DNA from: a virus
Length of the DNA: 64,000 bases
IMG/VR virus record: IMGVR_UViG_3300024324_000009
Span: 107,041 to 171,040 of that record
Strand: one strand, 5' to 3'
In this document: positions 26,139 to 48,212 of the stretch, piece after piece
Layout of the letters: each line of letters starts with the position of its first letter
How positions within the stretch are numbered: the first letter of the stretch is position 1
Notes under the pieces: generated by a model
What the model was told of the DNA's origin: nothing
Database searches by the model: none
The model's input: only the letters and a program-made list of their open reading frames with translations
Made by a program: the position numbers and the translations under genes

Positions 26139-27056
26139 TTATTCAAAGACAGGTGAAGGAATACCATTTCCTTGGTAATTAGGACTACGGTGTTTTATGT
26201 TAGGTAAGTCTTGGCAGTTTTTGCTAAGAAGTACTACCCAATCGTCAGAAGTTTTAGGCAAAGGTTTACTCATGCCCTTGAGATATGACAAAGTTAAAGC
26301 AGCAATACCAACTACATAAGGAGTAGCCATTGAAGTACCACTTAATCTAGCATAACCTTCGGGGACGCAAGAGATTATGTCTTCGCCCGGAGCAACAAAA
26401 TCTAAAGTTTCTCCTGTGCAACTAAAATTAGAGACATTCAATTTTCTACCTACTGAACCAACAGCCACCGTATACCTAGAACTAGCAGGATAATTAACTT
26501 TATTGTGATTACCACTATTACCAGCAGCACAGAATATTCCTATTCCATGATCATGAGCATATTTTAATGCTGATTCTAATCTAGGAGAATGATGAGGAGA
26601 ACCTAATGACATAGTAATTAAATCTGCATCTAATTGTACTGCTGTTCTAACTCCATCAGCAACATGATTATTATTACCCATACCATTATCACCTAATACT
26701 TTTATTGGTATAATTTTAACTTTAGGTGCAACTCCTACTACTCCGTATTTATTGGCAACAGCACCAATAGTGCCTGCAACATGACTTCCGTGACCATTAT
26801 GGTCAGACGGATACGTTCCGGGTTCTATGGCACAATATCCGGGTAAAGCTAGATTCTCATGCAGATCGGGGTGTTCAAGATCACATCCAGTGTCTATAAC
26901 TGCGACTCGTACACCACCTCCTTCAGTCACATTCCAACAAGATGGTATATCAAATTCATTTAATGCCCACGGAATCAACTGTGCAGAACCTAAATTAAGA
27001 CCATAGATATCTTCTCTAATATATGGTAATAGACCACAATCATTTCTTCTTCTCAC
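26139..27056 (-). CDS. Subtilisin-like serine protease (S8)
   Basis: VAVIDTG, HGSHVAG, AAGN, SGTSMATP. Confidence 0.95.
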   Translation of the reverse strand: MRRRNDCGLLPYIREDIYGLNLGSAQLIPWALNEFDIPSCWNVTEGGGVRVAVIDTGCDLEHPDLHENLALPGYCAIEPGTYPSDHNGHGSHVAGTIGAVANKYGVVGVAPKVKIIPIKVLGDNGMGNNNHVADGVRTAVQLDADLITMSLGSPHHSPRLESALKYAHDHGIGIFCAAGNSGNHNKVNYPASSRYTVAVGSVGRKLNVSNFSCTGETLDFVAPGEDIISCVPEGYARLSGTSMATPYVVGIAALTLSYLKGMSKPLPKTSDDWVVLLSKNCQDLPNIKHRSPNYQGNGIPSPVFE

Positions 27057-27882
27057 TTTTCACTCTCTCTTTCTGTATTTTTTGTATTGTTGCAATTTGT
27101 TCAGGTGTTAATTTATCTATAATCTCTATTTGTTCTTTTACTGCTTTGATCCAAGGAATAAATTTACTAATTCTAGTAAAGCAAGCATCGTCACCATAGT
27201 CTGAATCTCCCTTGCCATCTGTAGCCATTATAAAAGAATTTATACCAGCCAGCTTTTGGTCTATAAACATCCCACCACCACTGTCTCCGGGTGCTATTAA
27301 AAATTCTAGGCTAGTATGTGCATCATCTGATTTAACAAGCAGACAGTCTTTATACATTTCAGCAACAAGGTTAGAACCTGCTCTCCTCTTGTTGTCAAAT
27401 GGTTTCCAGCCGGTTTTAAATGTACCGTGATGTCCATACCCTGCCATGCTGCAAACTTTACTCATCTCATCTGATTCAGTATATAGTTCGGGATAAAAAT
27501 CTAAGTTTATTGGCTTGCTTAATTTACCAACTGCTATATCAGCTATTCCTGTCTTATCGTATTTCCAATCTGAATGTATAGCAATTATGCTGACGGGGAC
27601 TACTTTATTATTGAAGATCACATTCTGTGACAAACTTCCTGCCACTACGTGGGCAGCGGTTATTATATATTTAGGAGAGATTAAAATACAAGAACCTCTA
27701 AAGGTACTATTAAGATCATTAGACATTATACCTTGAATAGGTAAAACACACTGGTGTTTCTTTCCATATTCTAAATATTTTGAATCAGGAACACTAGGGA
27801 GTCTTGTTCCTGCGATACTGTCAGTCGGGGTCGTTATCTGAACTGTTATAAACAGCAGCAGAATACCAATCAAAAGTCTCAT
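27040..27882 (-). CDS. Trypsin-like serine protease (S1) with signal peptide
   Basis: ITAAHV, DIAVG, PGDSGGG. Confidence 0.9.
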   Translation of the reverse strand: MRLLIGILLLFITVQITTPTDSIAGTRLPSVPDSKYLEYGKKHQCVLPIQGIMSNDLNSTFRGSCILISPKYIITAAHVVAGSLSQNVIFNNKVVPVSIIAIHSDWKYDKTGIADIAVGKLSKPINLDFYPELYTESDEMSKVCSMAGYGHHGTFKTGWKPFDNKRRAGSNLVAEMYKDCLLVKSDDAHTSLEFLIAPGDSGGGMFIDQKLAGINSFIMATDGKGDSDYGDDACFTRISKFIPWIKAVKEQIEIIDKLTPEQIATIQKIQKERVKSEKKK

Positions 27883-28207
27883 AGTTGTTACCCTCCTTTG
27901 TTTTATATGGACGAGTAGTTATCTTATTAAGATACATACGAGCATCCCTTACTACGTCTTTATTCCAACTTCGATAGTTTAGTAAATGTCCAAAAACAAA
28001 GTGACACCACTTATCACAAAGAGTAATTAGGTTAGAAGGGTCTAGTTCACGAGATGGATCGAGATGGACGGGAACGATATGGTGGACTTCTGGTTTCCTA
28101 TCTGAACCACAAGCCTGACATACTGGCTGTTCTTTTAAATGTTCTTTACGTAACGCAGGCCATTTTGAAGAACGTGCTGCGTATCTCAATTCTCGCTTAA
28201 ATAGCAT
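27821..28207 (-). CDS. HNH endonuclease
   Basis: CQACG, EVHHIVP, NLITLC..CH. Confidence 0.85.
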   Translation of the reverse strand: MLFKRELRYAARSSKWPALRKEHLKEQPVCQACGSDRKPEVHHIVPVHLDPSRELDPSNLITLCDKWCHFVFGHLLNYRSWNKDVVRDARMYLNKITTRPYKTKEGNNYETFDWYSAAVYNSSDNDPD

Positions 28208-28489: not shown

Positions 28490-29071
28490 ATGTCTAAGCC
28501 TAATAAGATACTTATTACTGGAACAGGCCGTTGCGGTACTACTTTTCTCATGAGACTGTTTGCTCATTTGGAAATGCCTAACGGAGTTAATGCTGACTCT
28601 AGTGAAAGAGGTGTTTTTGGTAACTGTAATTCAGGACTAGAGTTAGATGTGCATCTTACTAATGTAGCAAGAAGCCCATACATACTCAAGTGTCCTAGCT
28701 ACATTGATAAACTACATGAAGCTGTCCAGAAGGTAGAAATTGATTGGTTGATCTTGCCAATTCGTGAATACCAAGAAGCAGCACAAAGTAGAGCAGATCA
28801 TGGCAGAGCCGCTGGAGGTTATCTAAGAGGTTCTAACATGCAAAGTGAATTGTCTGGTGCGTACAAAGCCATAGCACATGGCATTAGAGTAATGACGCAG
28901 TATGATATCCCTTTTATTCTTTTAGATTTTGGTCGTATGGTTAGCGATCATAGATATCTTTATAATAAACTAGAGCCTATTATGAAGAAATATGCTATAG
29001 ACGGTAAAACCTTTGAGACTGCTTGGATTGCAGCATCAGCCAAAAGTAAAAAGAATACTAGGAGTAAATAA
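28490..29071 (+). CDS. Sulfotransferase-fold (P-loop) protein
   Basis: ILITGTGRCGTTFLMRL PAPS-binding loop, ILKCP; GAGG RBS. Confidence 0.7.
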   Translation: MSKPNKILITGTGRCGTTFLMRLFAHLEMPNGVNADSSERGVFGNCNSGLELDVHLTNVARSPYILKCPSYIDKLHEAVQKVEIDWLILPIREYQEAAQSRADHGRAAGGYLRGSNMQSELSGAYKAIAHGIRVMTQYDIPFILLDFGRMVSDHRYLYNKLEPIMKKYAIDGKTFETAWIAASAKSKKNTRSK

Positions 29072-29075
29072 TTTT

Positions 29076-29099
29076 TAGGGGGTGCGAGAGCATCCCCTA
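29076..29099. terminator. Hairpin between convergent genes
   Basis: TAGGGGGTGC-GAGA-GCATCCCCTA. Confidence 0.65.
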
Positions 29100-29663
29100 T
29101 ATTCTTCTCCTGTCTATGACAACACAAAAATCATCATAGCGTTTCTTTGCATCCCATCCGTCCCACACATAGGCTAATCCTTGAAGTGCATCAGGAACAC
29201 ACTTGATTATTTCCTTAGCATTATCATAACCATGAATATCTTCTGTGATCCAGACACCTTTATCTGACAACAGCGTTTGAGACAGACTAATTAAATACTT
29301 CTGTTGTTCTAACTTATGGGAACAGTCTTCTATAATAAGATCAAAGTCATTCCTAAAATTAGACTCAGCCCATTCTTTAAACTCTGGCTTTGAAACATCA
29401 CCGACATAGAACTCATCGAATAGTTCACACCAAGTTTTATTGGAAGGTACATGACCAGACACAATATCTTTCCTGAGATCAGCACCTACTAAAAACTCTC
29501 CTATATTATTATCTTTAAGAAATTTAGCAAACCCACAGGAAGATGTTCCTATCTCTAGGATTTTCCTGTGGGGTGTAAGGAAAAAGTTCTGATATAACAA
29601 TCTATAGTTATGATAAGAGCAAAACTTATCAGTTTCATCTCTACTGCTTTCATAGTCCAGCAT
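29097..29663 (-). CDS. Class I SAM-dependent methyltransferase (sugar O-methyltransferase-like)
   Basis: TDK...HNY..LY, ILEIG, FDLIIEDCSH, G.WITEDI. Confidence 0.8.
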   Translation of the reverse strand: MLDYESSRDETDKFCSYHNYRLLYQNFFLTPHRKILEIGTSSCGFAKFLKDNNIGEFLVGADLRKDIVSGHVPSNKTWCELFDEFYVGDVSKPEFKEWAESNFRNDFDLIIEDCSHKLEQQKYLISLSQTLLSDKGVWITEDIHGYDNAKEIIKCVPDALQGLAYVWDGWDAKKRYDDFCVVIDRRRI

Positions 29664-29683
29664 AATGTCCTCTTCTTTCTATT

Positions 29684-30688
29684 TTAATCCAGTAAACTCG
29701 CTGCAATTAAGCATCCTTTAGAAACAGAATGTAATGGGTCGTCTGCATGTTTTACAACCTCAATACCAAGAGGAAACCCTGACTCTTTCAATTTTTCCTC
29801 TAGTTTTTCTACATAACCTTCAGCCCTTGATGTGCCACCAGCAACAACAATCTTGATGTCATCTTTAAACTTAGGTAAAGATTTGTGACCATCTAACGCT
29901 GCGGATAATTGTTTAGCAGTATAATCAATAAGTCTTTCATAGTAAGAAGCAACAGCACTTAAAACCGGATTGTCATTAGCTTCACCGACTTTAAAACCAC
30001 CGCTTTCTTTTTCTACCTGTACAACACTATCAGCTTCACCTGTGGCAACTGCACTCATGCGGTCAACCCAATCACCTGACTTTGTGGTACTGAAGACTAC
30101 TGTTGGTTCGCCGTTGAGCATAACACAAACATTGGTCATACCTGCACCACAACTAATGCCAATGCCAGTATAGTCTGTGTCTTCTAACTCAGCGTAACAC
30201 AACGCTTCTGCTTCGTTCACTGACCTTGCATCATATCCTACTTCTGCAAGGATAGCTTGTACTGTATCTTCGTGGAAGCCTACGTCAAAGTCTTCATCTT
30301 CTTGATCCACTGGTTGTGCAGGAACACAGTATACCAGTTTCTCACCTTCAGTTTCAGCCTGACCGACCACCTCTTTTAAAATGTAAGCCAATACACGTTT
30401 AGCTTCTTTTTCTTTTACGGAGATTACACCTCTGTGCATAGGACGACGAGCAGTTTCATTTCTTTCGACTGCCTTCTCAATAGCATCAGAACCGAGAAGA
30501 ATAAAAGAGCCATCTTCATCTTTGACAAACACTTTTCCTGCCAAACCTTTTTCAATCATTTTATTCGCTATAGGGGTGGATGGTTTAATAATATAAAACG
30601 CATCTCTAAAATCTTTGAATTTAATATTGTCGCCCTCATACTGTGACATTACAATAAAACTCGTGCCTACGTCAAGTCCGATTCCCAT
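29684..30688 (-). CDS. Actin-family ATPase (volactin/MamK/MreB-like)
   Basis: Phosphate-1 GLDVGT, RRPM.RGVI, VPA.P, NEAEA, phosphate-2 ISCGAGMTNVC, SGDWVD, adenosine VVAGGTS, connect-2 DPLHSVSKG. Confidence 0.9.
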   Translation of the reverse strand: MGIGLDVGTSFIVMSQYEGDNIKFKDFRDAFYIIKPSTPIANKMIEKGLAGKVFVKDEDGSFILLGSDAIEKAVERNETARRPMHRGVISVKEKEAKRVLAYILKEVVGQAETEGEKLVYCVPAQPVDQEDEDFDVGFHEDTVQAILAEVGYDARSVNEAEALCYAELEDTDYTGIGISCGAGMTNVCVMLNGEPTVVFSTTKSGDWVDRMSAVATGEADSVVQVEKESGGFKVGEANDNPVLSAVASYYERLIDYTAKQLSAALDGHKSLPKFKDDIKIVVAGGTSRAEGYVEKLEEKLKESGFPLGIEVVKHADDPLHSVSKGCLIAASLLD

Positions 30689-30690
30689 AA

Positions 30691-30996
30691 TTATTTACCT
30701 TTCATATTTTTTAGTTTACTAATTGCTGACTGCGTGTTGTCTTTTGATGTCTTGGTTTTACCAAGAGAATCAAATTTCTTTTCTAAACTATCTGTAGCTA
30801 TATGCTTATCTAATACAACTTTAGTATCGTCGATATTAATTGCATTATGCTTTCTTTCTTGCTCAATTTCTTTTTGTTTGTCGAAAAAACTTCTGGGCTT
30901 ATCCGATGAGGCATTTGTTTTAGTGACATAAACGCCCCCAACAAAACCCATAGTAAACACAAACAAATAAGATATAACATATATTGGTACTTCCAT
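30691..30996 (-). CDS. Single-TM protein upstream of the actin
   Basis: N-terminal TM, basic amphipathic C-terminus; 2 bp from the actin start. Confidence 0.6.
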   Translation of the reverse strand: MEVPIYVISYLFVFTMGFVGGVYVTKTNASSDKPRSFFDKQKEIEQERKHNAINIDDTKVVLDKHIATDSLEKKFDSLGKTKTSKDNTQSAISKLKNMKGK

Positions 30997-30997
30997 A

Positions 30998-31384
30998 TCA
31001 CCTATTAGATTTAAGCCACTTTAAATAGTTGCTTAGATCGTTATACCCCTTTCGTCGAGATTTAATTTTGTTTTTCGATAAGTATACTGAATCAGGAATT
31101 GAGGATACACTGTATTCTTTTTTTATTTTAGTATTCTCGTCTACGTTTATTGTACAGATTATAAGGTCTTTGAGTTCGTCTTTACTGACACTGGCAGACA
31201 AATCTTTTTTAAGCATCTTACAATATTTGCACCAATCTGCTGAGAAGACTAACAGTATATCTATACCTAGATCGTTGCTAACTTTTACAGCACTCTCATA
31301 ATTATTCATAAACACTGGCGGTCTAGCATATGCTGTGCCACCAATCAAACAAGCCAGTACAAAGGCTATAGTTTTCTTTATCAT
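30998..31384 (-). CDS. Exported thioredoxin-fold protein
   Basis: Signal peptide, FSADWCKYC, cis-Pro loop SIP. Confidence 0.85.
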   Translation of the reverse strand: MIKKTIAFVLACLIGGTAYARPPVFMNNYESAVKVSNDLGIDILLVFSADWCKYCKMLKKDLSASVSKDELKDLIICTINVDENTKIKKEYSVSSIPDSVYLSKNKIKSRRKGYNDLSNYLKWLKSNR

Positions 31385-31429
31385 ACATCACCTCCTGTTC
31401 GTATGACTATATACACCCTGACAAGGTTT

Positions 31430-32320
31430 TTACCTGATTTTGCCTAACACCCGTCCTTTAGGCGTTCTAACAACAAAACCCATTCTAATCATATACGGTT
31501 CAATGCTATTTGATATAGTATCCTCAGAGATGCCGCACATCGTAGCAATACTTTTGATACCCATAGGTTGACCTATCTTCTTCTGTAACACATCAATGTA
31601 CTTACGATCATTAACATCAAACCCATTCTTATCAATACCTTGCTTATTGAATATTGCCTCAACATCGTCTTTACGCTGATGGAACTGCACGTAACTCTTA
31701 TACCATTGAAGTCTAGCATTTAGAACTCTAGGAGTACCCTTGCTACGTTTAGCAATATCCAGCAACTCATCATCAGTTAGTTCGTCAAGTCCCATCTTCT
31801 TTACATTCAACCTAGCTAGATTAGCTAACTCACTAGGCGTATAGAACTGTAGATGTTCTTTGATTACAAATCTGTCATAAAATGGTTGGGTTAGACTGCC
31901 ACCATTAGTTGTTGCACCGATCATGCAAAACGGAGGGATGTCAATGCCTTCGTCTTCATTCTCCTGCATGAGATCAAGCCTGAAGTCTTCCATCACTGGA
32001 TACAGGAACTCTTCTACAAGAGTAGGCAGACGATGAATCTCATCAATGAATACGATACTACCACGCTCTACGCTCATGAGGTAAGGTATGATACTCTTAA
32101 TATTTCTAATCGTAGCAGCATTTAGAGTATGGATTTTTACACCTAACTCATTAGCGATAGCATTAGACATAGTAGTCTTGCCTAAGCCCGGTGGGCCATC
32201 AAGTAATGTATGAGGCATAACGTCTCCGTCCTTGCATCCTGCAATCATAATACTCAGACGTTCTTTAACATCTGTTTGTCCAATTACATCTTCAAAAGTT
32301 GTTGGTCGTAGATTATTCAT
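31430..32320 (-). CDS. ruvB: Holliday junction branch migration ATPase RuvB
   Basis: LRP..FEDVIGQ, GPPGLGKTT, FIDEIHRL, GATT, GTPR, IEPY.I..G...RTPKGR. Confidence 0.95.
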   Translation of the reverse strand: MNNLRPTTFEDVIGQTDVKERLSIMIAGCKDGDVMPHTLLDGPPGLGKTTMSNAIANELGVKIHTLNAATIRNIKSIIPYLMSVERGSIVFIDEIHRLPTLVEEFLYPVMEDFRLDLMQENEDEGIDIPPFCMIGATTNGGSLTQPFYDRFVIKEHLQFYTPSELANLARLNVKKMGLDELTDDELLDIAKRSKGTPRVLNARLQWYKSYVQFHQRKDDVEAIFNKQGIDKNGFDVNDRKYIDVLQKKIGQPMGIKSIATMCGISEDTISNSIEPYMIRMGFVVRTPKGRVLGKIR

Positions 32321-32981
32321 TTAGTTTTGCTCCTTCTTTTCTGAGAACCAGTTCAATCAGTTTCTTCCTGTCAATCGTTAGGTCAGCACAGTTCTCTCTC
32401 ATACAATCAGAAGCTAGCTTGCTCGCTGTTCCTGCATTGTAACCGTACTTCTTTAAAACCTTCACTGCCTCAGTTATAGCATACATCTGCTCATCTGTCA
32501 AGACATTAATTGCAAAAGTGTTTTCTACTGGAGCAAACTTAGATTCTTGCATATATCCATGATCAGGGATTATCTTATTGTTATCAAAATTAAAATCTTT
32601 TAATACAGGATCATTGGACTCAGGGTCAGGAGTAGGAGTAGGAGTAGACTCAGGAGTAGACTCAGGAGTATTAAATACTGGTTGAGTTTGTTTTGGTACA
32701 GGAGGAACCTTCTTATCATCATAGTAGACTTTCATTTTAGTAACGAACTGAGGTCGCAATATAGAGTTGCAATCAGGACAAACAATCATAAAGCCTTCTG
32801 TCATGGCTTCTGACAAGGTTATATAATTATCACACTCACATTCAGGACATTCGTATACTAAGTGTCCTTCAAACTTTTTAGGTTTCTGTTCGTTAAATGT
32901 TTTCCTGTTCTTCATCTTGTCCATCCTTTTCTGGTTTCCAAAAAATAAAGTCTTGCTTTTCATCGTCGAAAGCACACTCAA
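32313..32981 (-). CDS. Zn-ribbon plus RuvA domain III-like fusion
   Basis: CPEC..C, CPDC, PEST linker, EAVKVLKKYGYNAGTASKLAS...LIELVLR. Confidence 0.7.
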   Translation of the reverse strand: MSVLSTMKSKTLFFGNQKRMDKMKNRKTFNEQKPKKFEGHLVYECPECECDNYITLSEAMTEGFMIVCPDCNSILRPQFVTKMKVYYDDKKVPPVPKQTQPVFNTPESTPESTPTPTPDPESNDPVLKDFNFDNNKIIPDHGYMQESKFAPVENTFAINVLTDEQMYAITEAVKVLKKYGYNAGTASKLASDCMRENCADLTIDRKKLIELVLRKEGAKLNE

Positions 32982-38008: not shown

Positions 38009-38059
38009 ACACTACCTCTTAGAAAAATATAATATAAATCTAGTACACCTTAAATTAGC

Positions 38060-38353: not shown

Positions 38354-38840
38354 GATATACCTCCCAATCTCGATAAAAACTTTCGTTACCAGTGTCGATA
38401 CAACAAAGCATCGCTACTTCATTCTCCAACACTCCTCTATAAATATAACCGATATTTTGAAAATGGCAATCCCAAAAATCCAAATCTGTGTGATATTTTA
38501 TTTTATGACACAGTTTCTCAATCCAGACGTTATCAATATCTTCGGTTAATAGTTCTGCTTTTTCTGTGAGATAGCCTAATTCAGTTGTTGTTACTTTAGG
38601 ATCATAATACCTAAGTAATTCTGGCTCATAAAAATAAGGTATTTTGCACAGCCCTCCGTAAACTCTTGGGGCTAGATTGTGTTTAGATAATTCAACCTGA
38701 TTGTTATATGCTTCCTTGGCTTTTAACTCATGGTTAAAACTCTTAAACAATAAAGAAGGATGATCCTTCACAGGCAAAACATCACAGTTCGCCCCTGAAA
38801 AACCATCCTCTAATTCAATTAAATAATCGTTATTAATCAA
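38337..38840 (-). CDS. Protein-kinase-like fold protein
   Basis: LAPRVY, DCH.QNIG (catalytic loop), CIDTG. Confidence 0.65.
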   Translation of the reverse strand: MINNDYLIELEDGFSGANCDVLPVKDHPSLLFKSFNHELKAKEAYNNQVELSKHNLAPRVYGGLCKIPYFYEPELLRYYDPKVTTTELGYLTEKAELLTEDIDNVWIEKLCHKIKYHTDLDFWDCHFQNIGYIYRGVLENEVAMLCCIDTGNESFYRDWEVYHAVYK

Positions 38841-39819
38841 TACTTCCTACTTCCCCACCTGCTCTAGTAATTACGCCAGCAAAAACTCTCAGGTCTACGT
38901 TGTTATTAATAGTCCTAGTTGATCCATCAGCATAACATGCGTTCATAACTCCGGGGTGCATACTGAATGCCTCACCATCGTTAATTACGTTAAATGGTAC
39001 GTTGCCGGGACAGTTTTTACACTTGTCACCATTAGCATCAACTCCATGTAGTTTAAAAGGCCCAAGGCTGTCAGCCCAACCAAGACACTGGTTTGTGTCA
39101 CCTGTTGGAGTGCCACCTCTGTTTACACTAGCCTTATAAACATCAGGCCTACTTGAGCATTCAGCAATCATAAGAGTATTAGAAAAACCATCTCTAATTT
39201 GCTGCTCTTTAGTTACCTGATCTTTTACCAAGCACCCTTCTGTAATCGGGCCTTTTGCTGCATAAGGATCGCTACCAGCAGGAAAGATTTTATCCTTAAC
39301 ACCAGTAAACGTCTCATAATCTGTATGACCAAGACTGCTTGGACTTAGACTTGGTGCAGCACTATCTTCATCTCTGGTTGGCCCATCAATATCTGCATAC
39401 CCATCACCAGCAGGCAAAGCAGATGGACACAGAAATGTATTTACAGTTGTATTTACAGCCTGTGTATTCTCCCACCAATTTTTATTAAAATCATAAAGGT
39501 CTGCAACATTGCGTTGCTCTAAATTAGCAAGAGCAAATGCTCTCCAACTATGTTCTGTTCGTGATGGATTGCCAAGTGCAGATGGAGTCTCACTTAAATC
39601 TTTCGCCTCGATAGTCCATGCAGCAGCAGGAAAATACCTTCTTTGATCCATAGTTGTGTGCATAGCCAAACCTTGTTGTTTTAAATTGTTAGTGCAAGAA
39701 ACTCGTCTTGCTGCTTCTCTAGCCTGTTGTACAGCGGGAAGCAAAAGCCCCACTAATACTCCAATAATTGCGATTACCACTAATAATTCGATGAGTGTAA
39801 AGCCTTTACGTTGGTGCAT
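38833..39819 (-). CDS. DUF1559 prepilin-type N-terminal cleavage/methylation protein (planctomycete family)
   Basis: KGFTLIELLVVIAIIGVLVGLLLPAVQQAREAARR..C.NNLKQ.GLA.H, FLCPS, IRDGFSNT, H-X9-DG (HPGVMNACYADG). Confidence 0.95.
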   Translation of the reverse strand: MHQRKGFTLIELLVVIAIIGVLVGLLLPAVQQAREAARRVSCTNNLKQQGLAMHTTMDQRRYFPAAAWTIEAKDLSETPSALGNPSRTEHSWRAFALANLEQRNVADLYDFNKNWWENTQAVNTTVNTFLCPSALPAGDGYADIDGPTRDEDSAAPSLSPSSLGHTDYETFTGVKDKIFPAGSDPYAAKGPITEGCLVKDQVTKEQQIRDGFSNTLMIAECSSRPDVYKASVNRGGTPTGDTNQCLGWADSLGPFKLHGVDANGDKCKNCPGNVPFNVINDGEAFSMHPGVMNACYADGSTRTINNNVDLRVFAGVITRAGGEVGSID

Positions 39820-42196: not shown

Positions 42197-42743
42197 CTCT
42201 TCTATCGTGTTTGTGTCTGTATCCTAATTTCCCCATTTTTCTATAATACTCATTAATATTCATTTTTGTGTGTGCAGTTTCAAATCGTATCCATCTTATG
42301 TCATACTTTTCATAGTCTATGCTTTCTAGTATATGCAAATCATAGCCTTCAGTATCTACATATAATCTATCAATAGTTTTGAATCCTGTCATTCCAAATA
42401 ATTGATTTGCTGTACACGCAGGATGTTCTTTAGGATATATATTAAAATCTTCCCAACCCATCTTTTTTAAATGCTCTTTATTAAAACTTGTATGTTGCCC
42501 ATTTTTTTCTACGTCAGAATAATAAAGTTTTACTGTTTTTTGATGTGGGTCTGTGGTAATTGCTCTAGCCAGTATCTTTACTTCAACATCAAAGTGTTCA
42601 TAGACTTTTAAACAGTTGCTAAGTTTATCTATGTTTGGGTCTACACAAGTTAATCTATTAATTTTATTATGATTAGCTTTTACAAATTTAAAACAATCGT
42701 CACAGGTAAAGCAATCGTTGCTACCTATCTGTACTATATTCAT
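42171..42743 (-). CDS. FkbM-family methyltransferase
   Basis: IVQIGSND, IDRLYVDTEGYD..IL, IRFE. Confidence 0.85.
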   Translation of the reverse strand: MNIVQIGSNDCFTCDDCFKFVKANHNKINRLTCVDPNIDKLSNCLKVYEHFDVEVKILARAITTDPHQKTVKLYYSDVEKNGQHTSFNKEHLKKMGWEDFNIYPKEHPACTANQLFGMTGFKTIDRLYVDTEGYDLHILESIDYEKYDIRWIRFETAHTKMNINEYYRKMGKLGYRHKHDRRDAEVWKDE

Positions 42744-43120
42744 TTCTTCTTACCTTTCAAGTCCGCTATGTTCTGTGCTATATCTACTAGCCTATCCCAA
42801 TTTTCATCTATGTATTTTTCTGGCCCACCCATATCAGCCTGTGCTTGTGCTATTTCTTCAGTGGGAACCATTTCAATAGCATCCCAAGGACAAACCTTAA
42901 CATCATATAACTTTCCTTTATTACCCGGAACATGGATACATTGTTCGCAACCTATACAAGTAGATAGATCAATCTCACACCATTGAGTTACTCCCTGTTT
43001 TATCTGGAATATACAATCAACAGGACACACTTCTAAACAAGCCTCGCAGCCCGTACAGTTGTCTGCCTGAATGATTGCTAATTCTTTGGGTATCTTTTTT
43101 CTTACTTTTTTATCTGCCAT
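42740..43120 (-). CDS. 2x[4Fe-4S] ferredoxin
   Basis: CTGCEACLEVCP and CIGCEQC...CPWDAI. Confidence 0.9.
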   Translation of the reverse strand: MADKKVRKKIPKELAIIQADNCTGCEACLEVCPVDCIFQIKQGVTQWCEIDLSTCIGCEQCIHVPGNKGKLYDVKVCPWDAIEMVPTEEIAQAQADMGGPEKYIDENWDRLVDIAQNIADLKGKKK

Positions 43121-44421
43121 TAAGCTATAATATCGTGTTGGATATTTCCGAATACGTCTGTTAGTCTAAAGTCTCTACCACTATACCTATAAGTAAGTTT
43201 AGTATGATCTATTCCCATCAGATATAATATAGTAGCATGTAAATCATGTATGTCAAGCCCGTCTACTGCTTTGTGTCCAAAATCATCAGTAGTGCCGTAT
43301 CTCATGCCACCCTTTACGCCACCGCCTGCCATCCAGACAGTGAACCCACCATTATTATGGTCTCTTCCTGTAGCACCAGCCTTGATGCCCGGAGTACGAC
43401 CAAACTCACTACCGAATAAAACTATAGTGTCCTCAAACATGCCAGAATCTTTTAAATCTTGTAGCAACGCACCAATAGGCTGATCAATAGCAGTTCCCTT
43501 ACGCTGAATGTTGCCAGCGATGTCTTGGTGATTGTCCCAACCACCGAATCCGATCTCGACAAATCTCACGCCTGCTTCACTAAATTTCTTCGCTAACAAA
43601 CACTGCTTGCCAAACTTTTCTGTTGTCTTATTATTTATACCATATCTTTCTAGAGTTTCTTGTGACTCTTTTGATATGTCAATAGTTTGTGGAACACTTG
43701 TCTGCATTTTATAAGCCAGTTCATAACTTTCGATCAGGCCTTCCAATCTGCTATTCTCGCCTTTTAATTGCAGATGGTTTAGATCGCTAAGAAAATCTAA
43801 GTTCTCTCTTTGTTCAGCCATTCCTATTGGACTTTTTAAATTAGGTATTGCGTTTGCCATATTACCTGCATTAACTGCTGTGCCTTGATATATTGCAGGA
43901 AGAAATGCACTTCCGTAATTCTCTGGCCCAATACCAGCATCAATCGTTAGAAAACCGGGAAGTTCTTTGTTCTCAGTTCCTAAACCATACAGTAGCCAAC
44001 TACCCATACTGGGACGAGTAAACTGGAAATTGCCTGTGTGTAATAATTGTTTTGCTTGATTATGATTACCAGACTTTGATTTCATTCCATTAATTAAACA
44101 TAGGTCATCGGCATGTTTTCTCAAGTGAGGAAAATTTTCACTAATTTCAATACCACTTTCTCCTGCCGGTGTGAGTGGAACAGCAGGCTTGACAATCTTT
44201 CTGCCTTTGCTTACTGGATCGTCGATACCATCTTTCTCAACCATCAAAGGCTTGTAGTCAAAAGTATCGGTGTGACTCATCCCTCCACCCATATAGCAAA
44301 ATATAATCTTCTTTTTAATTGCTGTAGTTTCTTCTGCAAGTAGGCCTTTCAATGCCAACATGCCAAACCCAGCACTTGCTGTTTGTAATAAGTTTCGTCG
44401 ATTAAAATAGTTATTGTACAT
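43120..44421 (-). CDS. DUF1501 protein (planctomycete family; Tat signal)
   Basis: NRRNLLQ, M.GG.SH.DTFDYKP, RPSMGSW..YGLG.EN..LPGF, WDNH, EFGRTP, GRDH, HDLHATIL...GIDH..LTY...GRDFRLTDV.G. Confidence 0.95.
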   Translation of the reverse strand: MYNNYFNRRNLLQTASAGFGMLALKGLLAEETTAIKKKIIFCYMGGGMSHTDTFDYKPLMVEKDGIDDPVSKGRKIVKPAVPLTPAGESGIEISENFPHLRKHADDLCLINGMKSKSGNHNQAKQLLHTGNFQFTRPSMGSWLLYGLGTENKELPGFLTIDAGIGPENYGSAFLPAIYQGTAVNAGNMANAIPNLKSPIGMAEQRENLDFLSDLNHLQLKGENSRLEGLIESYELAYKMQTSVPQTIDISKESQETLERYGINNKTTEKFGKQCLLAKKFSEAGVRFVEIGFGGWDNHQDIAGNIQRKGTAIDQPIGALLQDLKDSGMFEDTIVLFGSEFGRTPGIKAGATGRDHNNGGFTVWMAGGGVKGGMRYGTTDDFGHKAVDGLDIHDLHATILYLMGIDHTKLTYRYSGRDFRLTDVFGNIQHDIIA

Positions 44422-46888
44422 TTCTAAATTCTCCTGTGCATATTAATATTTGGATTAGGTTTGCAAGATTCTTTTCCATAATCTCATTCTTTTTCTTGAT
44501 GTCTACTTTGCTTGTGTAGTCAACAAACTCTTCACCTTCTGGGGTCTTACCAACTCCTAAACCAATCTGTTCTGCTTGCTCTGTATCTTTTAGATAAAAA
44601 TCCATCGCTGCTTCAAATTCAACTTTAGATGGTGGCCTTCCAAGAATCTTTTGCCATATACTATGAAGATTATTATGGTGCAATAGCCTTGGCATGGTTC
44701 TACCCATCCTCATATTATTTTGCCATATCTCTTTTGCCATTTCTTTACACATGGCGATGATCTTTGGATTGTTCATTAAGAATAATGCTTGAGTACTAAC
44801 TGTTGTTACATTTCTTTCTGCTGCCAGCAGGCTATTGTCTGGACGATCAAACATATCAAGTATCTCAATCTTATTATCCCTTAACGATGGAATATAAATT
44901 GATCTAGCTTTAGTTTCCCCAATATATTTTCTTAATTCTTTTCCCGGTGCTTTAATTCCTGTTTGTATCTCACTTATGTTCTTATGCGACCCCTCTAGTT
45001 TGCCTGAGACAAATAACAGAGTGTCCCTAATTTGTTCAGCCTCTAATCTTTTCTCATTCATTCTCCAAACGTAAACATTGTCTGGGTCAATCTCAAAATT
45101 ATCTTTATTGAAGTTACTACTGCGTTTATATGCGTCACTCATAACGATAGTTTTAATTAGTCGCTTGTTTGACAATTTACCAGTAACAAACTTACTTGAA
45201 AGATAGTTCATTAGTTTAAGATTGCTTGGCTCACCACCAAGTATACCAAAATTATCAAAGCTGTCAAGTATACCTTTTCCAAAAAGATGTCGCCATACCC
45301 TGTTCACATGAACTCTGTAAGTCAGAGGATTAGTTTTATGTGCTATCCATTCTGCCAGTTCATAACGTCCACTGGTATTATCAAAGTTGAGAAATGGTCT
45401 GTCACTAAATATTTCAGGCAATCTTCTTGGCACTTCATCACCAAGATTATTAACTTCTCCCCTGATTGCAATTTTAATCTCAGTCATTTTAGTCTTGTCT
45501 TTTACAGACATTATAGGCTCAAGAAATTCTAGATAAGCTAAATCTTTTTCATTAAGTTTAGTCTTGGCCTCATCTAATCTCTTTTGTCTTTTATCTGTCT
45601 CTCTTTTAAGTTGTTCTGGAGTAACTCTTTTGCTCCAAGTTTTAATAGATTCTAATTGTGCTTCTAAGTTCTTGGTCTCACATAAAGCTAACCATCTCTC
45701 AATCTGTCTTTGCTTGTACAGGCTTTCAGTTTCTTTTGTGACTAAAAAATCGTAATCACCAAGATAGCCTGTATTATTATTACCTCTATATAATCCATCA
45801 AGGTTTTGTGTGTTACTAAATAAACCAGCAACACCATAGTAGTCTTCTTGGCTAAATGGATCAAACTTGTGATCATGGCATCTTGCACAACTCAGAGTCA
45901 TGCCAAGAAAACCTCTTGTAACTGCGTCTATTTGGTCGTCGTTGCGGTCTGCTTCAAACTGTCTAGTCTGTGCCTGTATATTTTTTGTACCTATTGTTAA
46001 AAAGCCTGTGGCAATTCTATTAATATTATATTCTTCATAGCTTTTATGTGGTAATAGATCGCCTGCAATTTGCTCTTTTATAAAATCATCGAATGGTTTG
46101 TCATTGTTAAAACTATCAATAACATAATCTCGATACCTCCAAGCATACGGACTAACCAAATTTCTGTCTGAACCAGATGATTCTCCATATCTGGCTACAT
46201 CTAACCAGTGTCTTCCCCATTTTTCTCCAAAGCCTTCGTCATCAAGTAAAGTATCGACTAAATTTTCATAACGATCTTCACTCTTATTCTGCATAAACTG
46301 CCTCATCTGTATTTCACTTGGGGGCAAACCAATAAGATCAAAATATAGTCTACGCATTATAGTATAGTCTTCTGCTAATTCACTAGGCTTTAAACCATGC
46401 TTATCTAAATCTAATTGCAGTATTGCATCTATCTCTGTACCATCGTCATACTTTGCTACAGGAGGACGCTGAACTTTTTTGAATGACCAGAACTGTCTAG
46501 CCTGCCTAAGTTCTATTGCTCTATTCTCATGCTTGTATCGTGGGTCAGGCATTCCCATTTTAATCCATTGTCGGAATAATTCAACAGTCTTTTCATCTAG
46601 TGGTTGATCAGGAGGCATGTCACCAGACTCTACATAGTCAAAAAGAGAACTCTCTTCTGGCTTACCCGGAACCACACTTGGCCCAGAATCACCACCGTTT
46701 AATATACCTTGCCTAGTATCTATGGCAAATCCACCTTTAGTTTTTTCTGAGGCAGATGAATGACATGAATAACATTGGGTTTGTAACACTGGTAAGATAT
46801 TATCATTAAAAAATTTGACACCACTTTTATCTTGACTATAAGCTATACTAGCAGATAGTGCAACAACAATAGCGATAACATATTTCAT
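44411..46888 (-). CDS. Planctomycete cytochrome c plus DUF1549 plus DUF1553 (PSCyt1/PSCyt2/PSD1) protein
   Basis: Signal peptide, CYSCH, RRLYFDLIGLPP, WGRHWLDVARY, CARCHDHKFDP, SGR.ELA.WI, NRVW..LFG.G, RL.AEQIRD, QALFLMN. Confidence 0.95.
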   Translation of the reverse strand: MKYVIAIVVALSASIAYSQDKSGVKFFNDNILPVLQTQCYSCHSSASEKTKGGFAIDTRQGILNGGDSGPSVVPGKPEESSLFDYVESGDMPPDQPLDEKTVELFRQWIKMGMPDPRYKHENRAIELRQARQFWSFKKVQRPPVAKYDDGTEIDAILQLDLDKHGLKPSELAEDYTIMRRLYFDLIGLPPSEIQMRQFMQNKSEDRYENLVDTLLDDEGFGEKWGRHWLDVARYGESSGSDRNLVSPYAWRYRDYVIDSFNNDKPFDDFIKEQIAGDLLPHKSYEEYNINRIATGFLTIGTKNIQAQTRQFEADRNDDQIDAVTRGFLGMTLSCARCHDHKFDPFSQEDYYGVAGLFSNTQNLDGLYRGNNNTGYLGDYDFLVTKETESLYKQRQIERWLALCETKNLEAQLESIKTWSKRVTPEQLKRETDKRQKRLDEAKTKLNEKDLAYLEFLEPIMSVKDKTKMTEIKIAIRGEVNNLGDEVPRRLPEIFSDRPFLNFDNTSGRYELAEWIAHKTNPLTYRVHVNRVWRHLFGKGILDSFDNFGILGGEPSNLKLMNYLSSKFVTGKLSNKRLIKTIVMSDAYKRSSNFNKDNFEIDPDNVYVWRMNEKRLEAEQIRDTLLFVSGKLEGSHKNISEIQTGIKAPGKELRKYIGETKARSIYIPSLRDNKIEILDMFDRPDNSLLAAERNVTTVSTQALFLMNNPKIIAMCKEMAKEIWQNNMRMGRTMPRLLHHNNLHSIWQKILGRPPSKVEFEAAMDFYLKDTEQAEQIGLGVGKTPEGEEFVDYTSKVDIKKKNEIMEKNLANLIQILICTGEFRNVQ

Positions 46889-46889
46889 A

Positions 46890-48212
46890 TTAAACCTCTC
46901 TTGCTTTGCCATGTAGATGTTTGAAGGTTGGAAATCTTAGGCTTATCCCACCTTCCTGATTTGTAGTCTCCTCAAAATATTGTACCAAAATAACCATGCC
47001 CTTAATTAGGTCAGGATTATTGTAAAACTCCTGTCTTTGATCAATAGTGAATCCACTTCCAACTCGTACATGATGTCCTCTATGGGTAATATACACACAA
47101 CTGAGCATTTCTTCCTCACATTCTGCACCATCCTTGACATATCGAAATGGCCCCATTTCTACGTCATCTACGGTATATTCAGCATCCTGAAAGGTTTTAA
47201 CTTTTAACAGGTCTTTTGACCTTTTACCTTTATATGTCGTGTTCTTACGAAGCATTACGCCTTCCCAGCCGTATTTGTCAGCCTGTTTAGACCAGAACTG
47301 TAAACCTTCATCATCTTTGACAATACTCATTCTTAGGACACTGAGACAAGGACATTCGTTCTTCTCCATAGCCAAGGCTAATTCAGTCATTCTCATTTCC
47401 AGATTACTCTTGCTTGAGCCTTTTTGGAAGTCATTAAAGTCAATCATGTCAAAGATTTTAAATGACGGGTTTTTAATTGTATGGTCTTTCTTGCGAATCT
47501 GTTTCATTACACCTTGAAAATCCTCATTTCCATCATCATCAATCAGACACAACTCACCGTCTAAAACTTTGTTAGTAAGTTGTAGACCCTTAATGCCATC
47601 ATAAACAACACCAAGAGTAGTGATTTCTTTTCCTGTACGGGTATAGAAGTTAATGTCACCAAAAGCGTCAATAATAGCAACACATCTAACACCATCCAAT
47701 TTACGAGAAACATACCAACCCTCTCCCCATTCGTGTTTGTCAGGATTAAACTTATCCGCTAAAGCAACATTAAATTGTCTGATAAGACCGGGAACAGCCT
47801 TGTTGATGAGTTTAGCACCTGTCCTAGTTTTTAAATCTTTATCAAGAATTAGATACACCAGTTCCTCATCATGTGGAAACTTTTTGATATATGTATTGAT
47901 AATTCTAACAGCGTCATGTCCAGTATATCTACCAGTGCGTAAATCACTAAACAGTGATGCTAAACCATATCCGGGTTCACAATCACCAAAGGAGAGGTCA
48001 GGACGTTTCTTCACCTGCTTACTGGTAATATTGTACATACTGTACGGACAGTATGCCATGCTGAGTACGGTCTTTGCAAAGAGTTGATTGCCGTTCTGTT
48101 CCTCAACGCCGCCTGTGTATTCCAGCAAGATGTCCAATTTGTCATTGGTACTGCTGTTGTGTCGTAGTTCCTCGATCATGTCCATAACGTGTAGTGTAGC
48201 TTGTTTAGTCAT
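46890..48212 (-). CDS. ATP-dependent DNA ligase
   Basis: KLDGVR, LDGE, FKIFD, EGVMLR, LLKVK, VGSGF, SLRFPTF. Confidence 0.95.
   Translation of the reverse strand: MTKQATLHVMDMIEELRHNSSTNDKLDILLEYTGGVEEQNGNQLFAKTVLSMAYCPYSMYNITSKQVKKRPDLSFGDCEPGYGLASLFSDLRTGRYTGHDAVRIINTYIKKFPHDEELVYLILDKDLKTRTGAKLINKAVPGLIRQFNVALADKFNPDKHEWGEGWYVSRKLDGVRCVAIIDAFGDINFYTRTGKEITTLGVVYDGIKGLQLTNKVLDGELCLIDDDGNEDFQGVMKQIRKKDHTIKNPSFKIFDMIDFNDFQKGSSKSNLEMRMTELALAMEKNECPCLSVLRMSIVKDDEGLQFWSKQADKYGWEGVMLRKNTTYKGKRSKDLLKVKTFQDAEYTVDDVEMGPFRYVKDGAECEEEMLSCVYITHRGHHVRVGSGFTIDQRQEFYNNPDLIKGMVILVQYFEETTNQEGGISLRFPTFKHLHGKAREV

Follow-up and report, generated by a model that had tools for sequence, protein, structure and literature searches.

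A volactin-family actin gene paired with a membrane adaptor gene in a large uncultured aquatic phage: a candidate two-gene cytoskeletal module

Actin and adaptor genes at the locus

The window analyzed in this study is a stretch of 64,000 nucleotides (bases 107041-171040) of the virus record IMGVR_UViG_3300024324_000009, which is 171,040 bp long and has a CheckV completeness of 100%. Our subject is a pair of minus-strand genes in this window, one encoding a predicted actin-fold ATPase and the other, directly upstream, a small single-pass membrane protein that we call the adaptor. We consider it fairly probable that the two make up a cytoskeletal module in which filaments of a volactin-type actin would be tethered to a membrane. 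The original prediction for this DNA, made from the sequence, had placed both genes in an operon with an exported thioredoxin, and the three open reading frames (ORFs) are present on the minus strand as claimed, with gaps of 2 nt (actin and 101-aa protein) and 1 nt (101-aa protein and thioredoxin). The features of the locus, in coordinates of the window, are as follows:

29684-30688, minus strand: predicted volactin-family actin-fold ATPase, 334 aa (Pfam family PF25216, fold, motifs)
30691-30996, minus strand: adaptor, 101 aa with a single membrane pass; its gene lies 2 nt upstream of the actin gene (ORF, synteny, tail hidden Markov model (HMM))
30925-30990, minus strand: predicted N-terminal transmembrane (TM) helix of the adaptor, residues 3-24 (uncharged hydrophobic stretch, alignment A3)
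30694-30840, minus strand: conserved C-terminal domain of the adaptor, residues 53-101, with the pattern I.IDD.K.V..I.TD.LEKKF..LG..K....I.KLKNMKG (A3 conservation, hhalign, tail HMM)
30694-30795, minus strand: adaptor residues 68-101, the part aligned to planctomycete adaptors (hhalign)
30998-31384, minus strand: exported thioredoxin-like protein, 128 aa, a facultative neighbour (Pfam Thioredoxin, signal peptide, C52-x-x-C55)
31385-31429, minus strand: spacer after ruvB, with a ribosome-binding site AGGAGGTG and a GGTGTA hexamer at 31412-31417 (sequence)

A full-length actin of the volactin family

The 334-aa protein matches the Pfam family Volactin (PF25216) with an E value of 1.4e-67 and 228.9 bits (cut-off 35). 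The match is full length, with residues 1-330 on positions 1-321 of the 321-position profile, and was confirmed on the genome DNA. A likeness to volactin had been proposed in the original prediction and is borne out by this score. The MreB/Mbl profile (PF06723) reaches 24.9 bits over residues 58-206 only, under its gathering score of 27. The Pfam scan returned no ParM/StbA match for the actin, no family in PHROGs matches it, and the best E value in a sequence search of the PDB was 0.36.

The five motifs quoted in the original prediction are all found in the translation: GLDVGT at residues 4-9, NEAEA at 158-162, GISCGAGMTNVC at 177-188, VVAGGTS at 281-287 and DPLHSVSKG at 318-326. Within them lie the residues of the nucleotide site, namely D6, G8 and T9 of phosphate 1, the putative catalytic E159, S179-x-G181-x-G183 of phosphate 2, where Ser replaces the usual Asp, and G284-G285-T286 of the adenosine motif. 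In a 51-sequence alignment (A1), D6, G8, T9, E159, G181, G183, G284 and G285 are invariant and S179 is nearly so. An AlphaFold2 model built on the 51-sequence alignment has a pLDDT of 96.9 and a pTM of 0.93, and its best Foldseek matches in the PDB are the BeeR filament 8r2n, the MamK filament 5ljv and many MreB structures, with TM-scores of 0.73-0.74 to filament-state structures. The fold is therefore nearest to polymerising actins and does not group with the non-polymerising members of the ASKHA superfamily, such as sugar kinases or Hsp70.

Since polymerisation of the phage actin is an inference, the protein could instead be a non-polymerising actin-fold ATPase, such as an ASKHA protein with a chaperone-like or regulatory role that simply binds a partner in the membrane. 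The viral structure library BFVD, which holds nothing close to the actin, fits this idea in so far as its nearest folds are mostly Hsp70 homologs, but these matches have 12-14% identity and a lower TM-score, and reflect the contents of the library. The best PDB matches are filament formers, and the family members volactin and probably Mad28 form filaments. The conservation of the actin (75-97%, vs 30-60% for other phage proteins) is also typical of polymer subunits, and taken together we find a non-polymerising ATPase improbable.

Abundance and conservation of the actin

A word-indexed protein search returned 1779 clusters at E <= 1e-5, and the best 120 of these 1779 are all 77-97% identical to the window actin, many of them on marine or freshwater contigs of up to 226 kb. 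An exhaustive search of 50%-identity representatives returned 905 clusters at E <= 0.001, 271 of them below 1e-30. In IMG/VR, 289 loci carry a close relative of the actin; among 50,697 deposited phage genomes a relative was found in only two uncultured huge phages, at 31-32% identity.

When the proteins of 79 related viral loci were compared with those of the window, the median identity was 76.6% for the actin, 63% for the HNH protein, 60% for RuvB, 47% for the S8 protease, 43% for the trypsin-like protease, 41% for the 101-aa adaptor and 36.5% for the thioredoxin. Because the actin is the most conserved of all the local genes compared, these identities point to an unusually strong purifying constraint on it. 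Strong conservation is a tendency of polymer subunits.

Several representatives of the family have unusual architectures. Three members of about 700 aa (P0122, P0129 and P0144) contain intein-like insertions with C...HN|C boundaries at the most conserved sites of the actin, which lie inside the phosphate-2 loop just ahead of GAGMTN in P0129 and P0144, and just ahead of the (S/C)GDW motif in P0122. Among P0126, P0139, P0193 and P0138/P0147/P0172 there are tandem double-actin fusions of about 730-750 aa, an actin with a long C-terminal region that looks Wzz/tyrosine-kinase-like by eye (1160 aa), and long acidic low-complexity N-terminal extensions.

Synteny defines a two-gene unit

Linkage of the actin to the TM gene is conserved in related contigs: at 79 of 80 viral loci the gene immediately upstream of the actin gene is a homolog of the adaptor gene, and at the sole exception an ORF is inserted between the two. 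The thioredoxin behaves differently. It is a signal-peptide thioredoxin as predicted, with a Pfam Thioredoxin match (E 3.7e-12), a Sec-type N-terminus (MIKK, a hydrophobic run and AYA) and the active-site pattern C52-K-Y-C55, and its predicted export would place it in another compartment than the actin. Of 77 eligible loci only 24 have a thioredoxin homolog between RuvB and the adaptor, and in many loci ruvB abuts the adaptor gene directly. Given 79/80 for the adaptor vs 24/77 for the thioredoxin, the conserved unit consists of two genes, adaptor and actin, and does not include the thioredoxin.

Some support for thioredoxin, TM protein and actin acting as one unit, with the exported thioredoxin serving the adaptor or a periplasmic partner, could be drawn from the 1-2 nt gaps behind a single ribosome-binding site region and from the recurrence of the trio in some relatives (L002/L003, L006). 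It is largely refuted by the synteny counts, however; the thioredoxin would be periplasmic and the actin cytoplasmic, and the adaptor would expose only about 2 residues outside the membrane, with no cysteine in the window copy. A functional trio is thus distinctly improbable, and we continue with the adaptor-actin pair.

Two loci assigned to bacteria, L086 (NZWA01000021.1, a 'Flavobacteriales MAG' contig of 8.9 kb) and L087, carry a phage-type actin (86% and 70% identity) with a phage-type TM adaptor; they are most likely phage contigs mis-binned into bacterial metagenome-assembled genomes (MAGs). At three Desulfobacterales and Acidobacteria loci (L088, L089 and L090) the ORF that matches the tail HMM described below lies downstream, not upstream, of the actin gene.

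The adaptor and its conserved tail

The adaptor had been described as a single-TM protein with a basic tail, which agrees with its one uncharged hydrophobic stretch (residues 3-24) and its Lys-rich end ..SAISKLKNMKGK. The Kyte-Doolittle 19-residue maximum falls within about the first 20 residues and is 1.8 in the window adaptor and 2-3 in its relatives. No Pfam family and no DNA-binding family matches the protein. In an alignment of 35 phage copies (A3), an N-terminal hydrophobic helix and a variable linker are followed by a conserved C-terminal block, I.IDD.K.V..I.TD.LEKKY..LG..K....I.SSINKLKNMKG, in which L95 is invariant and I55, D56, K59, V61, T68, K94, K96 and K99 are each conserved at >=90%.

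Similar endings occur in proteins encoded beside more distant actins, whose identity to the window actin is given here with the ending and, where noted, the type of adaptor:

L172, same synteny: 51%, ..INKLKELKKR, N-terminal TM helix
L174, other phage context: 48%, ..ADKLKKMLKRR, no TM helix
L175, other phage context: 44%, ..AIDKLRQLKKAKG, no TM helix
L182: 41%, ..EKLRKLLGR, N-terminal TM helix
L184: 40%, ..KLKNLLG, coiled coil
Planctomycetota chromosomes: 32-37%, ..GIAANLERLKKLKGG, 250-600 aa, no TM helix, no Pfam family
Chloroflexota: 34-35%, ..AVAALRKLKAG
Patescibacteria: 36%, ..LNKLKKLRE
Aerophobota: 36%, ..AIRALKSLR

Alignment of A3 with an alignment of planctomycete tails (A4) by hhalign gave an E value of 8.8e-5 over 34 gap-free columns, both at the extreme C-termini. 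An HMM of the C-terminal 55 adaptor residues (the tail HMM) was then searched against 22,352 six-frame ORFs of 174 loci at E <= 1. It gave 159 hits, of which 157 are within 600 nt of a same-strand actin gene and the other two at 619 and 664 nt; none of the ORFs away from actin genes was hit. A match was found in 63 of 78 cellular loci. Because the HMM seeds were drawn from upstream ORFs, the adjacency of the seeds is built in, but the absence of hits elsewhere and the 24 extra cellular loci are not. Across the module the tail follows the pattern ..LE....(G/V)..K....I...L.(K/R)LK.(L/M)(K/R)G, which is also seen in the window adaptor. The gap-free alignment and the confinement of the hits to actin neighbours indicate that the phage adaptor tail is homologous to the tails found beside cellular volactin-family actins.

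To model a tail together with an actin we used a natural planctomycete read-through, P0271 (alignment A6), in which the adaptor stop codon is read as a residue, so that the chain consists of the last 50 adaptor residues, a 34-residue spacer and the actin. In its AlphaFold2 model the tail forms a strand and a helix with a pLDDT of 62-71, while the spacer is at about 40 and the actin above 90; this model is compatible with docking of the tail and only suggestive. The cellular ORFs with N-terminal extensions include no natural fusion of an adaptor with an actin.

The conserved actin, the fast-evolving partner with an invariant C-terminal peptide and the tight gene coupling together suggest a logic like that of ParR and ParM. 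As for function, a ParMRC-like DNA segregation system that keeps the phage genome as an episome would share with our locus the two-gene adaptor and actin layout and the C-terminal adaptor peptide, and a prophage actin with a DNA-binding adaptor is known from AlpC/AlpA of CGP3 (PMC4446434). The phage adaptor, however, is a membrane protein without a DNA-binding domain, and no iterated centromere-like repeats flank the genes (29000-32500), both of which argue against segregation. Nor does the actin match ParM/StbA, and the window adaptor is the sole ORF in the 171-kb genome that matches the tail HMM (E 3.3e-20), leaving no second adaptor. Lastly, the genome has the genes expected of a large tailed phage, although no search was aimed at integrase or lysogeny genes. 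We regard segregation as highly improbable and prefer a membrane tether, since the variable part of the actin's partner is the membrane anchor.

Two side observations concern cellular adaptors. In a Ca. Magnetobacteriaceae MAG (L157:3334-5987) the module has three genes, which encode a ParA/MinD-type ATPase, an adaptor of 178 aa that has the conserved tail, and an actin of the volactin family (316 bits). A planctomycete subclade (L118, L123, L136, L109, L130, L138) has two tandem actin genes, the first with the adaptor upstream of it and the second extended by a conserved N-terminal domain of about 160 aa (..YWDFFFE.KE..).

Source genome and probable host

The genes of the window are densely packed and nearly all on the minus strand, with matches to rIIA, an ATP-dependent DNA ligase, RuvB, glycosyltransferases and a tail-fibre-like protein. 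The remaining genome has two arms: a structural one on the plus strand, with giant proteins and matches to tail fibres and baseplates, and one on the minus strand that encodes DNA polymerase and ribonucleotide reductase. The rIIA, DNA ligase, tail-fibre, baseplate, DNA polymerase and ribonucleotide reductase matches identify the source as a large tailed phage. It is not a jumbo phage: at 171 kb the genome is under the usual threshold of 200 kb for that term. No match to the tubulin/FtsZ GTPase domain (PF00091) was found in the whole 171-kb genome.

The window also contains genes of planctomycete signature families:

42740-46912 and 38833-39819, minus strand: PSCyt1/PSCyt2/PSD1 protein, DUF1501 protein, 2[4Fe-4S] ferredoxin and DUF1559 prepilin-like protein

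The PSCyt1/PSCyt2/PSD1, DUF1501 and DUF1559 genes fit the planctomycete host proposed in the original prediction, and because of them we take the host of this uncultured aquatic phage to be probably a member of the Planctomycetota. Planctomycetes divide without FtsZ, and the organisation of their cells is poorly understood.

Cellular relatives and phylogeny

With one genome per species scanned, the cellular relatives of the actin are overwhelmingly from Planctomycetota (Phycisphaerae, Planctomycetia, Kuenenia), and the contigs that carry them are as long as 1.8 Mb. Of the 201 Planctomycetota genomes sampled, 76 score above the PF25216 cut-off, at up to about 300 bits and with as many as four copies, and members also occur in Nitrospirota, Thermodesulfobacteriota and Omnitrophota. 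Two further actins were considered as planctomycete relatives and set aside, that of Uab amorphum, which is lokiactin-like, and saltatorellin, which is described as MamK-like.

Trees were built with a quick LG+G4 model (119 rows) and a careful LG+C20 model (60 rows), with E. coli MreB as the outgroup. The window actin groups with phage-context and metagenomic sequences in a clade of their own that branches deeply (support 89/94; 18 of 19 rows labelled phage-type), for which the genomic context was checked in five phage-type representatives (P0121, P0124, P0125, P0127 and P0128). Planctomycetota form a separate clade (support 98/91), which the actin of the huge phage LR745208 joins, and a further group holds haloarchaea and other bacteria (support 83/92). 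The haloarchaeal members are sequences from a plasmid collection (megaplasmid), not HVO_2015 itself, and a search with the acidic representative P0199 as query found no haloarchaeal chromosome. Phage and cellular actins share 32-39% identity. Since the phage-type clade is deep and apart from that of the Planctomycetota, the trees argue that the phage gene is not a recent capture from a sampled host lineage.

The abundance of the family in Planctomycetota raises another explanation, in which the phage actin, the adaptor or both would act on a putative volactin-type system of the host. The adaptor tail could capture host filaments at the membrane, or the phage actin could cap, co-polymerise with or titrate host filaments and adaptors, so that budding is halted or the cell reshaped. 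The 76 of 201 genomes with PF25216, the planctomycete signature genes on the phage and the homologous ending of host-type adaptors (..NLERLKKLKGG vs ..SKLKNMKG) are in keeping with such interference. On the other hand, an identity of 32-39% to cellular actins and a separate clade amount to a large distance for co-polymerisation, and both partners are phage-borne and co-occur in 79/80 loci as expected of a self-sufficient pair. We judge it unlikely that interference is the main role, and retain the membrane-tethered phage filament as our working model.

Other genes and signals around the locus

The remaining features near the actin gene are as follows:

29097-29663, minus strand: methyltransferase-like gene, downstream of the actin gene (weak Pfam Methyltransf_24/FtsJ and phrog_21658 matches)
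29076-29099: terminator-like site, a GC-rich hairpin of 10 pairs (6 GC) between the convergent genes 28490-29071 (plus strand) and 29097-29663 (minus strand)
26139-28207, minus strand: HNH endonuclease, trypsin-like protease with an N-terminal hydrophobic segment, and S8 subtilase, past the actin region

The methyltransferase-like gene has no homolog at the same position in any of 82 related loci; it is specific to the source genome and lies outside the module. The HNH, trypsin-like and S8 genes are found downstream in 50, 54 and 32 of 79 loci, respectively, and are thus frequent but not constant neighbours, an association that persists even at 51% actin identity (L172). In more distant phage contexts we noted glycosyltransferase genes beside the actin: a family 9 glycosyltransferase gene directly downstream of it in L174 and L175, an ORF resembling this family upstream of it in LR756511, and a GT1 gene and sugar-nucleotide enzyme genes flanking it in L183.

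The minus-strand transcription unit to which the actin gene belongs probably ends at the hairpin at 29076-29099; the count of terminator-like sites in the region is not above chance. A GGTGTA motif had been pointed out ahead of the operon, and one is present at 31412-31417, 33 nt ahead of the thioredoxin start, but neither enrichment nor a demonstrated promoter backs a role for it: the window contains 33 sites vs 25.8 expected, a number reached by 9 of 100 shuffles, and a sigma-70 promoter scan stayed at chance level, with no signal above shuffles. Several intergenic copies do lie 11-48 nt before starts. Those noted at 38049, 31417, 28250, 15440 and 11463 include several at 14-43 nt from a start codon and often read GGTGTAT/C followed by A/T-rich sequence, and this intergenic form may be part of a phage promoter.

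Proposed mechanism

We propose that the actin (29684-30688) would polymerise with ATP into dynamic filaments in the infected cell. The adaptor (30691-30996) is probably translationally coupled to it, as the genes are 2 nt apart, and would span the cytoplasmic membrane with its N-terminal TM helix, the short N-terminus facing outward and the C-terminal domain lying in the cytoplasm, a topology suggested by the lack of N-terminal positive charge and the location of its partner. The peptide at the end of the adaptor (..I.KLKNMKG) would dock on the actin and so tether filaments or their tips to the membrane, in the way that the ParR C-terminal peptide holds ParM. This would fit Haloferax volactin, whose filaments, followed with VolA-msfGFP, are dynamic in vivo and contact the membrane at their tips alone (PMC10869688). 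The module would be expressed from the non-structural (replication/recombination) arm of the genome, with the thioredoxin, methyltransferase, HNH and protease genes as neighbours, not components. The original prediction had suggested that it positions phage DNA or capsids or remodels the cell. Candidate roles include positioning replication or assembly, holding or reshaping membranes, and interfering with a homologous host system; we would guess first that the filaments organise the interior of the infected planctomycete cell, which lacks FtsZ.

Several points weigh against this proposal. The TM segment of the window adaptor is just moderately hydrophobic by its Kyte-Doolittle value of 1.8, and the P0271 fusion model has just moderate confidence in the tail and does not show the place of docking. 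Beside some phage-type actins the adaptor is not recognisable, as ClpP is encoded upstream in L183 and the tail HMM finds no hit in LR745208 and LR756511; it also has no hit in three haloarchaeal loci, where the neighbour is a 4-TM DUF7139 protein. The host is assigned from signature gene families, and the membership of Mad28 in PF25216 is deduced from a shared motif and taxon range.

Comparison with known systems and significance

The closest characterized relative is volactin (VolA, HVO_2015) of Haloferax volcanii, which belongs to the same Pfam family as the phage actin over the full length, and the haloarchaeal megaplasmid members are about 35% identical to the latter. A gene for a membrane protein also lies beside Haloferax volactin, the CdpA-like HVO_2016 (PMC12126565), and the neighbour in H. 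marismortui is a DUF7139 protein (E 1.2e-40). The phage actin differs in being viral, not cellular, and in belonging to a separate deep phage-type clade; its partner has one TM helix and 101 aa, in contrast to the CdpA-like 4-TM DUF7139 proteins of haloarchaea, and the disk-shape role of volactin cannot apply to it. The module of the Planctomycetota is alike in actin family, in gene order (adaptor immediately upstream) and in the last ~34 adaptor residues. Its adaptors, however, are 250-600 aa long, coiled-coil-like and without a TM helix, and its actins, 32-37% identical to that of the phage, are often N-terminally extended or tandem.

ParM/ParR and AlpC/AlpA resemble the phage pair in outline, as an actin-like ATPase beside a small adaptor that links filament ends, but share no sequence family with it (the AlpC sequence itself was not compared), and the phage adaptor is membrane-anchored, not DNA-binding, with no centromere repeats. 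BeeR and MamK have the nearest solved folds (8r2n and 5ljv) but just ~20-22% sequence identity. Mad28, an actin-like protein that polymerises in vitro and is marked by an S-x-G-x-G phosphate-2 motif (PMC10653835), has this motif in common with the phage actin, which is found without a magnetosome context. Mad28 is reported from Nitrospirota, Thermodesulfobacteriota and Omnitrophota, phyla where PF25216 members occur. The L157 locus, considered as a possible magnetosome cluster that would link Mad28 to PF25216, has ParA, adaptor, LysM and housekeeping genes as neighbours. Finally, the PhuZ spindle of nucleus-forming jumbo phages is likewise a phage-encoded polymer that organises the infected cell, but PhuZ belongs to another protein superfamily, the one for which the source genome has no match.

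Phage-built cytoskeletons are known mainly from the PhuZ tubulin, plus one prophage actin (AlpC). It is already known that phage-encoded actins exist, as shown by AlpC of the Corynebacterium prophage CGP3 (PMC4446434), that the Volactin family is curated in Pfam, and that a membrane-protein gene lies beside Haloferax volactin. In the full-text literature we found no description of a volactin-type (or MamK-like) actin in phages, nor of the single-pass adaptor or the shared adaptor tail. The actin system described here is found again on hundreds of contigs of large uncultured aquatic phages and has a membrane adaptor of its own, whose tail is likewise a hallmark of the proteins paired with volactin-type actins in Planctomycetota and several other phyla. 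This provides the first concrete candidate for the "volactin-binding factors" asked for by the volactin paper, and a short peptide that is directly testable for actin binding.

A more speculative idea, which we hold to be doubtful, is that large aquatic phages of FtsZ-less Planctomycetota run an actin cytoskeleton of their own whose membrane adaptor shares its docking peptide with the volactin-type adaptors of the host, which would allow cross-talk between virus and host filaments. If true, the phage could take over filaments of the host or attach its own to the host's adaptor sites, thereby positioning its replication or assembly site or stopping budding, and the module would correspond, in actin, to the PhuZ spindle, with a host-hijack interface built in. 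A virus with its own version of a host-type filament system would provide a handle on the cell biology of both the phage and its host.

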